DNA of 44,302 bases, taken from assembly GCA_964459675.1 (NCBI GenBank), contig CAYWNP010000002.1, forward strand, positions 4,665-48,966. The letters are read 5' to 3'. The DNA is from an uncultured Akkermansia sp. GTDB lineage: Bacteria; Verrucomicrobiota; Kiritimatiellia; RFP12; UBA1067. The notes beneath the pieces are model-generated. The model saw only the letters and a list, made by a program, of their open reading frames with translations. It was not told the origin of the DNA and ran no database searches. The position numbers and the translations under genes were made by a program. Below are positions 37,811-40,093 of this stretch, one piece after another (position 1 is the stretch's first letter; every line of letters starts with the position of its first letter).

Positions 37811-37826
37811 GCGAAACGAGAAACAG

Positions 37827-38306
37827 GTGCTGGTGACAGATAATAAACAACAGGGTCTAGTTATCATCGCCTTTTGGCTTGCGCTTTCAAGCGTAACGCT
37901 CAGGATTATGCCATTACTGATCCTCTGTGCACTTGAGGCACTTGCAAAACCCTTTGCGGACGCGACAGAGCGCGTCCCTCCAGTGCATGAAAGCCCGTTC
38001 TCCTTGATTTTTGGAGGGCCACGCTCTGTCGTGGCCGTTTTCGTTGGAGGTTTTGCAAGTGCCTCACTTGTCTATTTTCAGGGTCAAACTAGTTTTGCAG
38101 GTCTTGCCGGATTTAGCGTGTTTATGTTGTTACCCATGTGGTTTGGTAGTCTGCTGGCTTGGCTTACAAGTCTAGTTATGGTGGTCATTATTGCTTTCCG
38201 TTGTCGTCCCTTACTGTTTACCAAAATGGGCATTGCCACGCTACTCATGCAGGAGGGGATTCTGGTTTGCATTGGAGCCATAGCTGTTTCAATCATCTAT
38301 AAGTGA
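37827..38306 (+). CDS. Doubtful small 4-TM membrane protein
   Basis: This is the part of ORF 37650-38306 downstream of the sulfatase stop, starting at GTG 37827 or ATG 37908. It has hydrophobic helices, but its third positions are AT-rich, unlike the neighbouring genes. A 131-nt imperfect palindrome lies inside it. Confidence 0.4.
   Translation: MLVTDNKQQGLVIIAFWLALSSVTLRIMPLLILCALEALAKPFADATERVPPVHESPFSLIFGGPRSVVAVFVGGFASASLVYFQGQTSFAGLAGFSVFMLLPMWFGSLLAWLTSLVMVVIIAFRCRPLLFTKMGIATLLMQEGILVCIGAIAVSIIYK
37935..38065. repeat. 131-nt imperfect palindrome with two internal hairpins
   Basis: The outer arms GAGGCACTTGCAAAACC (37935-37951) and GGTTTTGCAAGTGCCTC (38049-38065) are perfectly complementary. 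The inner hairpins are GGACGCG-ACAGAG-CGCGTCC (37958-37977) and GGCCACG-CTCTGT-CGTGGCC (38017-38036), and their loops are complementary to each other. Confidence 0.75.
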
Positions 38307-38308
38307 CC

Positions 38309-38334
38309 CTATCACAGTTTATAAACTGTGATAG
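38309..38334. promoter_or_regulatory. 26-bp perfect palindrome CTATCACAGTTTATAAACTGTGATAG (copy 1)
   Basis: Read directly. It starts 3 nt after the stop of the doubtful membrane ORF. It is a candidate dimeric-regulator operator. Confidence 0.55.
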
Positions 38335-38444
38335 AACGGTATGGATTCATTAACCGAAATGAACGATGGATTTAGCTAATAAAAACAAGTCATTCTTGAA
38401 AACAGGCAGCTTCATATTTAATAAAAATAACCAGCAAACAGTTA

Positions 38445-38468
38445 TATCACAGTTTATAAACTGTGATA
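38445..38468. promoter_or_regulatory. 24-bp perfect palindrome TATCACAGTTTATAAACTGTGATA (copy 2)
   Basis: Read directly. It ends 6 nt before the ArsR-like gene stop. GGGG follows it, mirroring the CCCC that precedes copy 3. Confidence 0.55.
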
Positions 38469-38474
38469 GGGGTG

Positions 38475-39047
38475 CTAACTTTTCTCTAAAACGAGATTGA
38501 GCAATTTTTTAGCCAAAGGACGTGCGGGAATGCATAAAGTTACGCTGGATTCTGACAAGGCGACCACGGCCCGATTTTCGAGTTTCTTCAATTGCCGATG
38601 GAGGGTTTGGTAGGGCACACGACAAAGCGTGGACAATTCAGAGGGTGAACAATCTGGATTGGCTTCGATGACACGGACCATCAAAATCCGCTTGGGGCAG
38701 GTAAAAATAGTCAGGTCTTTTAATACGATCGCGTATGCTTTGGCATCTGTACAACTCCGTAAGGTAGTAATGACGGTCTTTAAAAGGGTGTCTGCGTGTT
38801 TGACTCTGGGGTTAGCTCCCAGGGAGTAATCAACCCATCGCCCACGTCGGCTCGCCTGTAAAAACCCGCGTGCGTTCAGGATGCGCAGGTACTGGCTGCA
38901 GACGCTCTTTTTCAATTTACAACGTGCCGCTAGTGTCTGAACGCACAAAGGCGATTCATCGATCATGGCTTTCAATAATGACAGCCGGGTGCGATTGGCC
39001 AATGCCCGGCAACTTCTCCATACAGTTGGTTCTAGTATTTTGCTCAT
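38475..39047 (-). CDS. ArsR/SmtB-like transcriptional regulator with two tandem winged-HTH domains
   Basis: ORF trimmed to ATG 39047 (MSKILEPTVW). The first wHTH is ALANRTRLSLLKAMIDESPLCVQTLAARCKLKKSVCSQYLRILNARGFLQASRRGRWVDYSL. The second is CPKRILMVRVIEANPDCSPSELSTLCRVPYQTLHRQLKKLENRAVV. Confidence 0.75.
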   Translation of the reverse strand: MSKILEPTVWRSCRALANRTRLSLLKAMIDESPLCVQTLAARCKLKKSVCSQYLRILNARGFLQASRRGRWVDYSLGANPRVKHADTLLKTVITTLRSCTDAKAYAIVLKDLTIFTCPKRILMVRVIEANPDCSPSELSTLCRVPYQTLHRQLKKLENRAVVALSESSVTLCIPARPLAKKLLNLVLEKS

Positions 39048-39058
39048 ATAAACAACCC

Positions 39059-39084
39059 CTATCATAGTTTATAAACTGTGATAG
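39059..39084. promoter_or_regulatory. 26-bp palindrome CTATCATAGTTTATAAACTGTGATAG (copy 3, one mismatch), probable operator
   Basis: It lies 12 nt upstream of the ArsR-like start codon, in the divergent spacer shared with the Cys4-protein gene. Confidence 0.6.
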
Positions 39085-39229
39085 TATGATACAAGGTCGC
39101 TCTGGGTTATCGCAATGACAAAATAGGGAAGAAACTGGCCCCAAACTGAGATTGATATCAAAAACGCGATTATGGTAATCTTAAAAAAAGAGTATTTTGT
39201 ATAGGTCGTCAACTTATTGAGTAGCGCTG

Positions 39230-40093
39230 ATGTTTAAAGATATCGGCCATGAAAGGGAACGCATGGAAAAAGAACGGTTTATTACTGGTATTTATAACTA
39301 CTGTGATTATTGGTGTGAGCGGTGCGCATTTACGCGACAATGCCGTACATTTGCGATGGGTAAGGAAATGGAGGCGGAACAGAAGTCAGATCGGGACGAT
39401 GCCACGAACATGACCTTCTGGAACAAGCTCGCAGGCAAGCTGAGTCAGGCTTCAATGATGTCAAGCGAACAGGGGTGGTTGCAAACGGATTGGCAGGATG
39501 AGGATGGCTTGGATGCAAATGACTTTCTGCATGAGGAAGAGGACGATGCGGAGATGGATGAATATATGCGTCAGGACGAGGCGCGTCAGCAGAAAGTACG
39601 TCAAAGCCCACTCTCCCGTATGGCCATGGAGTATATGCAACGTGTCCAAGCGTGGCTGAAAGACTCGGATGCGGATTTAAAGGCACTTGCCCAGGAGTGG
39701 CTCGAGGCCGCGAAAACGCGTGAGCAAGATTGTGATTATGAGGAACTGGCCCACTGCGTGGGGGATATGCTCGAAGTAATCACGTGGTACCATACATTCT
39801 TACCCCCGAAGGTCAACCGGGCGTTGCGCAGCAATTTTGAAATGAAAACCAGAGAATCCGGTATCCTTGCAGAATCAAGCCAGTTTGATGCCAATGGCTC
39901 TGGCAAGGTGGTTTTAATCGCCGTGGAACGTTCCATCTCTGCTTGGCTGTTTCTTCGCGACCACTTGTCCAAACAGGAGGATACGATCTTATCCATGCTA
40001 GTGATTCTAGGTCGCATCCGAAATGGGATTCAGGAAGAGATTCCAAACGCGAAGACTTTCCGCCGACCTGGGTTCGAGAATGGTAAGTTCTAA
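39230..40093 (+). CDS. Hypothetical protein with N-terminal CX3CX2CX5C cluster and a strongly acidic linker
   Basis: The N-terminus is ERFITGIYNYCDYWCERCAFTRQC. An acidic stretch DWQDEDGLDANDFLHEEEDDAEMDEY follows, then a helical C-terminal domain. No family was recognised. An alternative start is ATG 39263. Confidence 0.55.
   Translation: MFKDIGHERERMEKERFITGIYNYCDYWCERCAFTRQCRTFAMGKEMEAEQKSDRDDATNMTFWNKLAGKLSQASMMSSEQGWLQTDWQDEDGLDANDFLHEEEDDAEMDEYMRQDEARQQKVRQSPLSRMAMEYMQRVQAWLKDSDADLKALAQEWLEAAKTREQDCDYEELAHCVGDMLEVITWYHTFLPPKVNRALRSNFEMKTRESGILAESSQFDANGSGKVVLIAVERSISAWLFLRDHLSKQEDTILSMLVILGRIRNGIQEEIPNAKTFRRPGFENGKF

Follow-up and report, generated by a model that had tools for sequence, protein, structure and literature searches.

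Genes and repeats at the locus

The window, by which we mean the whole stretch of DNA analysed (44,302 nt), contains a small regulator gene on which a sulfatase gene and a membrane-protein gene converge. A 26-bp palindrome, CTATCACAGTTTATAAACTGTGATAG, is repeated three times around this gene, and its two arms are laid out as a 12-2-12 inverted repeat (CTATCACAGTTT-AT-AAACTGTGATAG). The features of the segment are as follows.

38309-38334, no strand: palindrome copy 1, 0 mismatches; distal member of the downstream array
38335-38443, no strand: array spacer, GC 0.32, with an A/T-rich element with G/C flanks near its midpoint (~38375-38392)
38444-38469, no strand: palindrome copy 2, 1 mismatch (first base), the 24-bp core being perfect; opens the downstream array
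38475-39047, minus strand: regulator gene, 190 aa, two winged helix-turn-helix (wHTH) domains
39059-39084, no strand: palindrome copy 3, 1 mismatch (C>T); proposed autoregulatory operator
39086-39115, minus strand: sigma-70-like promoter of the regulator gene, predicted by consensus scan: TTGCGA (39115-39110), 18-nt spacer, TATCAT (39091-39086)
39230-40093, plus strand: gene of a Cys4 protein, the divergent neighbour, 287 aa; CX3CX2CX5C motif at the N-terminus, then an acidic linker, then a helical bundle at the C-terminus

An earlier note on this DNA had reported the three palindromes and their positions relative to the genes, and both were confirmed. Copy 1 starts 2-3 nt past the stop of the convergent membrane-protein gene, copy 2 lies 5-6 nt past the regulator stop codon (38475-38477), and copy 3 ends 11-12 nt ahead of the regulator ATG (39047). 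Copies 2 and 3 do carry the mirrored GGGG/CCCC extensions. When the window was shuffled 100 times with dinucleotides preserved, the expected number of palindromes was 0.00, against the three found. A genome-wide count, which had been proposed as a check, gave only 4 copies in the 2.67-Mb assembly (G000), even with 6 mismatches in 24 allowed; three surround the regulator gene, and the fourth is located on contig C169 (947-970), upstream of a SEC-C/TPR gene. The segment had also been described as an AT-richer islet. Its GC content is indeed lower than that of the flanks, but the difference is mild: GC is 0.37-0.43 in both intergenic stretches and about 0.47-0.53 over both genes, while the flanks have 0.55-0.60 and the genome average is 0.529, so the segment is merely mildly AT-richer.

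The neighbouring genes required two corrections. The membrane ORF, previously regarded as doubtful, proved to be a real, conserved gene into which a repeat element has inserted. The Cys4 protein, previously regarded as an orphan, has homologues in at least 154 clusters at 90% identity, all named hypothetical, and matches no Pfam or NCBIfam family. Four of its residues are invariant (C25, C29, C32 and C38). AF2 models the helical bundle (residues 106-270) with a pLDDT above 90 and the Cys region with one below 50, and no fold match was found in the PDB at E ≤ 0.1. The Cys4 gene adjoins the regulator gene divergently in eight of the ten orthologous loci (it is missing in G001 and L127) and is never found beside more distant regulator paralogues. 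Neither the regulator nor the palindrome was detected near Cys4 homologues elsewhere, and three distant loci had no conserved context. The proposed unit of regulator, palindrome and Cys4 protein is thus a feature of most orthologous loci and does not extend to the wider family.

Four genomes of the genus show synteny at the locus. The CPBP gene of G005 stands in a wholly different context, and G004 lacks both; no clean comparison with an empty site was obtained from these two relatives. A genuine MITE of G000 is found 250 bp from the palindromes.

The tandem-wHTH regulator and its predicted promoter

The regulator consists of an ArsR/SmtB-like domain (residues 9-97) and a second wHTH domain (residues 102-187). 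Pfam families HTH_20 and HTH_5 matched residues 16-63, and HTH_24 and MarR_2 matched residues 124-166, while NCBIfam NF033788 scored 65.4 bits over residues 13-78, against a cut-off of 55. A profile search of the PDB returned ArsR and SmtB at E values of 1e-11 to 1e-10. The AF2 model (pLDDT 93.8) shows two α1-α5 units. Foldseek gave single-domain matches to SqrR, HlyU, CzrA and SmtB, with target TM-scores of 0.65-0.73 for one domain in the case of the first three; no solved structure in the PDB matched both domains, the query-normalised TM-score being 0.39 or lower. No catalytic, transposase or nuclease domain was found with Foldseek or among the Pfam and NCBIfam hits, all of which are HTH families. 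Since BLASTP detected no similarity between the two halves, an internal domain duplication was rejected. As two unlike domains face a perfectly symmetric site, the two-domain protein has to be taken to act as a dimer.

In fold and sequence family the N-terminal half agrees with the ArsR/SmtB repressors (SmtB, ZiaR, CzrA, AzuR, and the thiol/persulfide sensors SqrR, BigR and HlyU), and the regulator fits both the profile of this family and its α1-α5 topology. The operators of the family have been defined as 12-2-12 inverted repeats at or near the transcription start (PMC8790569). The palindrome shares this layout and in its upstream position begins 1 nt past the predicted −10 box. In contrast, ArsR/SmtB proteins are dimers of subunits of about 100 aa (90-125 aa), whereas here two wHTH domains lie in one 190-aa chain. 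With regard to a metal- or thiol-sensing site (α3 CXC, α5 His/Asp/Glu, or a Cys pair), Cys13 is the sole invariant Cys among 81 sequences of the regulator family, and because no other Cys column is invariant or nearly so, the canonical α3 and α5 motifs are not conserved. Finally, the palindrome is perfect here, and extra copies follow the stop codon every 135 bp.

The TTGCGA-N18-TATCAT block ahead of the regulator gene is kept in six orthologous loci, including G001, which has no Cys4 gene, and presumably acts as a promoter. Copy 3 begins 1 nt past the −10 hexamer, and the expected transcription start therefore falls inside it. In the half of copy 3 closer to the start codon, TATGATA stands in place of TGTGATA, and this imperfection is kept in G001, G002, G003, L123 and L125. 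The position is that expected for the operator of an autorepressor. Copy 3 had been suggested as an auto-operator in the earlier note, and the retention of the palindrome in the orthologues, directly past a conserved promoter, makes this suggestion plausible.

Partnership of palindrome and protein family

The regulator family comprises 391 clusters at 50% identity (E ≤ 1e-30), and its members span Verrucomicrobiota, Kiritimatiellia and Lentisphaerae (PVC group). Orthologues of the regulator (66-84% identity, from nine other genomes or contigs) have the palindrome at the same places, and around more distant relatives the brackets consist of variants of TnTCACACTTTG|CAAAGTGTGAnA specific to each paralogue, TTCTCACACATTATAATGTGTGAGAA being an example. 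When palindromes with arms of at least 10 bp were counted in 80 PVC loci, one was present upstream of the gene in 47, downstream in 38 and on both sides in 27; at this stringency 22 loci had none. The downstream copy lies 0-30 nt past the stop codon in all 38 loci, whichever way the next gene points. The exact framing of the gene, first seen in the window, is therefore a conserved trait of the family. The palindrome pattern occurred 50 times in ten genomes with the regulator, whereas five related genomes that lack it had 0, 0, 0, 0 and 1 occurrences, and a reversed control pattern gave 0 in all genomes. The number of matches per relative genome ranged from 1 to 18. These results support the view that the palindrome belongs to the regulator, as had been supposed: it is kept in orthologues, it takes its own variant in each paralogue, and genomes without the regulator contain at most one match.

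Palindrome and protein also change together. Up to seven or more paralogues are present per chromosome, with 42-63% identity within one genome (hence called old), and a single genome holds several gene-palindrome pairs that differ in sequence. Between the two copies belonging to one gene 6.1 of the 7 variable positions agree, against 2.8 of 7 between loci. The 18-bp core CACAC-N8-GTGTG is conserved as sequence, beyond the pairing of its arms, across family proteins of 31-45% identity, while the flanks vary by paralogue. Without correction for phylogeny, and at a strength that is only moderate at the level of segments, the best covariation of the inner part of the half-site is with residues 46-58 (K47, S48, V49, Q52, Y53, N58), in the recognition helix of the N-domain; the outer part covaries with residues 145-152 (Q147, T148, Q152), in the helix of the C-domain. 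Two protein chains per palindrome would agree with this pattern. Among 578 ORFs from the 80 loci there was no conserved neighbour gene for the family. Protein family and palindrome are thus partners, the gene is bracketed by the sites, and in the array described below the sites keep a fixed spacing. Most likely, the two-domain DNA-binding protein docks on the 26-bp palindrome between whose copies it is encoded.

Another explanation is that the palindromes work as RNA hairpins without any protein, namely as bidirectional terminators or 3'-end stabilisers past convergent genes, with one more hairpin in the 5'-UTR of the regulator mRNA. Such a role would suit the position of copies 1 and 2, each right behind the stop codon of a convergent gene. 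However, a T-run follows only 1 of the 38 downstream copies, and a terminator scan does not call the palindromes. Hairpins would also agree with the greater length of the downstream palindrome compared with the upstream one in 18 of 27 loci, and with the symmetric alteration of position −11 in both halves of 32 of 35 copies. Yet complementarity ends at 13 bp per arm, a bare stem needs no core conserved as sequence among such divergent proteins, and the near absence of the palindrome from relatives without the regulator is hard to reconcile with a role that involves no protein. The copies found far from the regulator gene point both ways: in G026 most of them (4-5 of 7) lie between convergent genes, but in G005 five of six lie between divergent genes. 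We consider this explanation quite unlikely.

The downstream array, remote copies and a proposed mechanism

Copies 1 and 2 are 135 bp apart from centre to centre and form an array between two convergent genes. Array units were taken from nine orthologous loci and two remote pairs; all 15 measured 133-136 bp, and 11 of the 15 were exactly 135 bp. The arrays hold 2-4 repeats. Their spacers (110-111 nt) have diverged in sequence, homologous spacers follow each other in the same order across species, and the A/T-rich element in mid-spacer is visible when the units are stacked. Tandem copies in other lineages are 60-113 bp apart, with no common helical phase. At least three genomic contexts, those of the window type, of L124 and of L127, harbour the module of regulator and array. 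In the spacers we found no conserved small ORF, no sigma-70 promoter at a fixed position and no structured RNA (z-scores near 0 on both strands); Rfam gave just two matches at chance level, and no match to the IHF consensus appeared in a pattern search that was possibly faulty.

CRISPR arrays consist of 24-47 bp repeats separated by unique spacers of about 26-72 bp, are accompanied by cas genes and turn over their spacers. A CRISPR identity was rejected here: the spacers are 110-111 nt long and keep their order across species, there are 2-4 repeats, and neither the ORFs at 36.5-41.5 kb nor the clusters of conserved neighbours included a cas-like gene. The multi-HTH protein Cbp1 of Sulfolobus, which binds CRISPR repeat DNA, resembles the present case in combining a tandem-HTH protein with regularly spaced short repeats, but differs from it in the same respects, namely the cas genes, the length and vertical inheritance of the spacers and the small number of repeats.

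Arrays of identical sites immediately downstream of the gene of their binding protein might also be structural DNA sites, centromere-like or nucleoid-organising (compare parS/ParB and sopC/SopB), on which the protein is loaded for a non-transcriptional purpose. The sites are near-perfect and independent of orientation, and the fixed 135-bp spacing suggests wrapping or stacking. However, no partner NTPase gene, and indeed no conserved neighbour of any kind, accompanies the regulator gene; seven or more paralogues may share a chromosome, the upstream copy overlaps the promoter of the regulator itself, and the domains have ordinary ArsR/MarR-type repressor folds. It therefore seems highly improbable that the arrays are such structural sites.

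Overall, the remote copies in relatives do not favour promoter regions. They are perfect identities, with nothing in common beyond 26-30 bp and no flanking homology; perfect identities of 28-30 bp of this kind are unusual for binding sites that arise by point mutation. MITE or insertion-sequence ends were rejected as an identity of the palindromes, because the spacers between them differ and the remote copies share the palindrome alone. The related suggestion in the earlier note, that the copies are the ends of a cassette or mobile element, finds no support, in view of the synteny of the locus in four genomes, the age of the paralogues, the restriction of homology to 26-30 bp and the lack of a catalytic domain. 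A further possibility is a self-propagating partnership like that of REP and RAYT, in which the palindrome is copied to intergenic sites with the help or protection of the protein. The likeness to REP/RAYT is clear: a gene is flanked by its own short palindrome, both change sequence together, several differing pairs exist in one genome, and extragenic copies, intergenic in any orientation, are alike over the palindrome only. The presence of the regulator-plus-array module in different contexts fits as well. In contrast to REP/RAYT, the protein has two DNA-binding domains and nothing else, with HTH hits only and no IS200/IS605-type Y1 transposase, and there are 4-18 copies per genome (4 in G000) instead of hundreds; membership in the REP/RAYT system was rejected on these grounds. 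In addition, self-propagation does not agree with the age of the paralogues, with synteny within the genus, or with the conserved, position-specific imperfection of the upstream copy beside a conserved promoter. Such propagation is, in our view, a distinctly unlikely explanation.

Preferably, the palindrome would be the cognate site of the tandem-wHTH protein, with autorepression, looping or roadblock functions of the downstream copies and a tiny regulon; we regard this proposal as a whole as fairly probable. The regulator is predicted to bind the palindrome as its cognate site. The upstream copy lies directly past the −10 box, and so the bound protein should block initiation or promoter escape, which would lead to negative autoregulation. 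The perfect copy past the stop codon, with further copies every 135 bp, would complete a site-gene-site module. These downstream copies may cooperate with the upstream operator by protein-protein contacts, through DNA looping or a higher-order complex whose geometry would set the 135-bp spacing. They may also, or instead, stand as protein roadblocks and so shield the small gene from transcription entering or leaving it. The few identical sites elsewhere would make up a very small regulon, with one member in G000, the site on contig C169. The protein may in addition respond to an effector and regulate the divergent Cys4 gene.

Several observations speak against this proposal: the array lies between convergent genes, where no promoter needs control; the remote copies have no preference for promoters and are unusually perfect; tandem spacing elsewhere follows no helical phase; and 22 of the 80 loci had no palindrome at the stringency used. 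Alternatively, family and palindromes might constitute an independent DNA-protein module of a new type, in which the protein would assemble on the spaced palindromes (135 bp in the genus) as a looped or wrapped insulator or terminator at gene ends, with the palindromes being copied to new intergenic sites by an unspecified mechanism. Copying would explain both the perfect remote copies and those between convergent genes. We hold this version to be unlikely.

For the favoured reading, autorepression with cooperating or roadblocking downstream sites, the lac repressor offers a known parallel with respect to the 3' site. The lac repressor uses several operators (O1, O2, O3), which cooperate by looping. 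LacI is reported to regulate its own gene through O3, which lies at the 3' end of lacI and acts as a roadblock (PMC3711431). The likeness consists in a site at the 3' end of the repressor's own gene. In contrast, the protein family is a different one, the 3' site here lies past the stop codon, the sites are identical perfect palindromes, and the bracket is conserved across a whole family. Literature searches on ArsR-like proteins with tandem wHTH domains, and on this palindrome in Verrucomicrobia, turned up nothing relevant, and we found no published description of a site-gene-site layout with extra sites every 135 bp.

To our knowledge, next to nothing is known of transcription factors, or of the sites they bind, in Verrucomicrobiota, Kiritimatiellia and Lentisphaerae. 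In the present case a whole regulator family can be paired with its predicted binding sites by sequence alone, and the paralogue-specific variants of the site would amount to a natural specificity code for a single-chain, two-domain ArsR-type protein. If the paralogues do not cross-bind, they are candidates for mutually independent repressor-operator pairs. The strict 135-bp spacing may also offer a way to test whether a small bacterial repressor loops or wraps DNA. As a separate observation, the 135-bp period corresponds to 45 codons, and the centre of the palindrome supplies a TAA.

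Palindromes around the regulator gene

Three sites in the window carry the 26-bp palindrome CTATCACAGTTTATAAACTGTGATAG, against none expected in shuffled sequence. The three copies and their placement relative to the ORFs agree with the earlier note. The features concerned are the following.

38309-38334: palindrome copy 1 (CTATCACAGTTTATAAACTGTGATAG, 0 mismatches), after the stop of the membrane ORF
38444-38469: palindrome copy 2 (1 mismatch, at the outermost base), 5-6 nt past the regulator stop codon
38475-39047, minus strand: gene for the regulator
39059-39084: palindrome copy 3 (1 mismatch), ending 11-12 nt before the regulator ATG
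39115-39086, minus strand: predicted sigma-70-like promoter of the regulator, TTGCGA-18-TATCAT
39230-40093, plus strand: divergent gene for the Cys4 protein

A genome-wide count in the source assembly (2.67 Mb, 232 contigs, 86% complete) found one more copy, on contig C169 (947-970), and no degenerate copies even when 6 mismatches in 24 were allowed. With four copies in the assembly, the palindrome does not qualify as a high-copy repeat. The AT-richer islet described earlier holds for the intergenic stretches (GC 0.37-0.43), while the regulator and Cys4 genes lie merely slightly under the genome mean of 0.529.

Orthologues of the regulator at 76-84% identity were found in three same-genus genomes (G001-G003), which share the gene order sulfatase, membrane gene, palindromes, regulator, (Cys4), CPBP protease, as judged from our own crude ORF calls in the related loci. 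In all three, the same palindrome lies upstream of the regulator start codon and two to four copies lie downstream. Five metagenomic contigs with orthologues (66-82% identity) have the same layout. A scan of species-representative genomes gave 193 relatives, whose named records are mostly of the PVC group (Verrucomicrobiota, Kiritimatiellia, Lentisphaerae/Victivallales, a few Planctomycetota), with a few MAG records labelled otherwise; a single genome often has several of them as paralogues. Clustered at 50% identity, the whole family amounts to 391 clusters (E <= 1e-30). Literature searches gave no account of this family, its palindrome or the bracket.

For a survey of the wider family, 80 loci were kept and palindromes whose arms reach 10 bp or more were sought, within 250 nt upstream; the strict pattern undercounts variants. 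A palindrome was present upstream in 47 loci (typically 5-35 nt before the start), downstream in 38 (typically 0-30 nt after the stop), on both flanks in 27 and on neither in 22 at this stringency. The framing of the gene pointed out earlier thus recurs in orthologues and, on both sides, in 27/80 family loci. The half-site consensus, reading up to the symmetry centre, is TnTCACACTTTG, in which CACAC is near-invariant across the family, while positions -13 to -10, -4, -2 and -1 vary between paralogues. At these variable positions, the copies flanking a given gene match each other at 6.1/7, against 2.8/7 across different loci. The gene beyond the downstream copy lies on either strand about equally (19 minus, 17 plus), which indicates that the downstream copy belongs to the regulator gene and not to a target gene. 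Across the regulator family no conserved neighbouring gene family was found.

The resemblance of such framing copies to cassette or mobile-element ends, raised in the earlier note, was not borne out. Synteny of the locus is kept in the genus; moreover, paralogues within one genome are 42-63% identical, the encoded protein has no catalytic domain, and the copies share no homology past the palindrome. On the other hand, the regulator and its downstream palindromes form a module seen in at least three genomic contexts, so that some movement over long times is likely. At the locus of the 66%-identity orthologue (L124, 5502-8576), the module adjoins an SLFN-like helicase gene and one for a large UvrD/DEAD helicase, surroundings that look like a defence-island context.

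The regulator and its probable reading of the palindrome

The regulator has 190 aa and two winged helix-turn-helix (wHTH) domains. The N-domain is of ArsR/SmtB type (NF033788, 65.4 bits, cut-off 55), with ArsR and SmtB as best PDB sequence matches, and the C-terminal domain matches HTH_24/MarR_2. An AlphaFold2 model (81 sequences, pLDDT 93.8) contains two alpha1-alpha5 wHTH units. Foldseek matched it to single-domain proteins only (SqrR, HlyU, NolR, CzrA, SmtB) and found no solved chain spanning both domains. Since the N-domain profile and the operator layout fit ArsR/SmtB, while the chain is not a single-domain subunit and no sensing site was recognised in it, the protein is assigned to an ArsR-related tandem-wHTH family, not to ArsR/SmtB in the strict sense.

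Comparative evidence of several kinds suggests that the regulator recognises the palindrome. According to the description of ArsR/SmtB repressors in PMC8790569, these bind inverted repeats of 12-2-12 layout close to the transcription start, and the window palindrome is a perfect 12-2-12. Copy 3 starts 1 nt after the predicted -10 hexamer. The promoter-operator block is conserved whole in six orthologous loci, where the imperfect palindrome half nearest the start codon is identical, L126 excepted. With the palindrome kept in orthologues behind a conserved predicted promoter, the suggestion that copy 3 is an auto-operator remains plausible at the level of sequence.

The palindrome might also be read as a mere hairpin, but its complementarity stops at 13 bp per arm. 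A hairpin would not need conservation of the core sequence, yet the core is kept though the proteins are just 31-45% identical, which disfavours this reading. Matches to TCACASNTTNNAANSTGTGA numbered 0, 0, 0, 0 and 1 in five related genomes that lack the family and 50 in ten genomes that have it; the reversed control pattern had none in these genomes. Among 56 protein-site pairs (shared ancestry uncorrected, segment-level contrast moderate), covariation of the inner positions (-4, -2, -1) is strongest with K46-N58 in the N-domain recognition helix. The outer positions (-13 to -10) covary with P145-Q152, where the C-domain recognition helix begins, and also with some residues near 76-85. Such a pattern would fit recognition by protein with one chain per half-site and the N-domains toward the centre.

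The downstream array and remote copies

In the orthologue group, 15 palindrome-to-palindrome units were measured, from nine loci and two remote pairs of the complete genome G002. The centre-to-centre distance is 133-136 bp in all of them and exactly 135 bp in 11. The spacers, of 109-112 nt (mostly 110-111), can be sorted into three or more sequence types, which run A-B-C in G002, A-C in G001, A in G003 and B in the window. The order is the same between species and single units are lost in some lineages; therefore, the arrays were inherited vertically and shrank by whole units. In the spacers there was no conserved ORF, no promoter at a fixed position, no RNA-structure signal and no Rfam match of note; their sole common feature is an A/T-rich element with G/C flanks near the midpoint. 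Because length is conserved where sequence is not, the spacers point to a geometric constraint between bound proteins, for example looping, stacking or wrapping. In other lineages tandem copies are spaced 60-113 bp apart and do not share a helical phase.

In the source genome (G000) and in G001-G003 alike, the array is flanked by convergent genes. Among the 27 loci with both flanks occupied, the downstream copy is the longer palindrome in 18, and a T-run follows the downstream copy in just 1/38. We favour the view that the downstream copies would act as cooperative partners of the upstream operator and/or as protein roadblocks insulating the gene. The roadblock role has a known precedent in O3, the LacI site located at the lacI 3' end (PMC3711431). 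In function the module may be likened to an autoregulated ArsR/SmtB repressor with a 12-2-12 operator, and to lac with its auxiliary operators.

The sole remote copy of the source genome, on C169 (L003, 1-2470), lies 127 nt upstream of a gene for an N-terminal SEC-C zinc motif with TPR repeats and downstream of an XRE-HTH and SocA/Panacea antitoxin-like gene. The SEC-C/TPR product is another Cys-motif protein adjoining the palindrome. G002 has two remote pairs, 135 and 136 bp apart, and one single copy, upstream of unrelated genes. Remote copies of paralogues' palindromes lie between divergent genes in 5 of 6 cases in the related genome G005 and between convergent genes in 4-5 of 7 in G026. 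Over 28-30 bp the remote copies are perfect, and outside this stretch they have no sequence in common; position -11 is changed symmetrically in both halves in 32/35 copies, with few independent events behind it. Taken together, these observations would fit a very small regulon, but room is left for a copy mechanism, or for a role other than at promoters.

On one G026 contig (C66, L143, about 1960-2080), two copies of a paralogue palindrome lie 54 bp apart within a tandem duplication of about 54 bp, and may fall inside an ORF by the crude call. G004 is the sole genus genome that yielded no family member in the search, but it does contain one TCACACTTTGTAAAGTGTGA palindrome (C44, 2519-2538), which could be a relic site or the site of a regulator gene missed by the search.

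Neighbouring genes

The membrane ORF (37827-38306, start most likely GTG 37827), considered doubtful before, is a real gene: it aligns end to end with 112-aa orthologues, save a 45-codon insertion. This in-frame insertion (residues 36-80) is a 131-134-nt inverted-repeat element (37934-38066), a multi-copy MITE of the source genome with copies 100% identical over 131-134 nt on contigs C63, C15, C22, C8 and C24 and diverged ones on C182 and C16. The 112-aa orthologues of G002 and the orthologous locus L123 are without the insertion, and inspection of the equivalent position in G001, G002 and L123 showed no such inverted repeat.

The Cys4 protein matched no Pfam or NCBIfam family. Contrary to what had been supposed, it is no orphan: its matches include at least 154 clusters (90% identity), every one of them annotated as hypothetical. 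All four Cys of its CX3CX2CX5C are invariant, and its C-terminal helical bundle is well predicted, with no significant match to the PDB. The proposed unit of regulator, palindrome and Cys4 protein holds in part: the Cys4 gene is the divergent neighbour in 8/10 orthologous loci, including L124 although its remaining context differs, and is missing in G001 and L127. Cys4 homologues in other families (35-52% identity) have no regulator, palindrome or conserved context nearby. The pairing thus characterises the orthologue group, not the wider family. Copy 3, about 145 nt from the Cys4 start codon, lies upstream of a conserved block that probably holds the Cys4 promoter, so that direct repression by occlusion is not evident. 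In the orthologous locus L125 (1235-2883), the Cys4 and CPBP protease genes are separated by an insertion of two toxin-antitoxin-like pairs, one of PIN plus a small partner and one of DUF3368 plus UPF0175.
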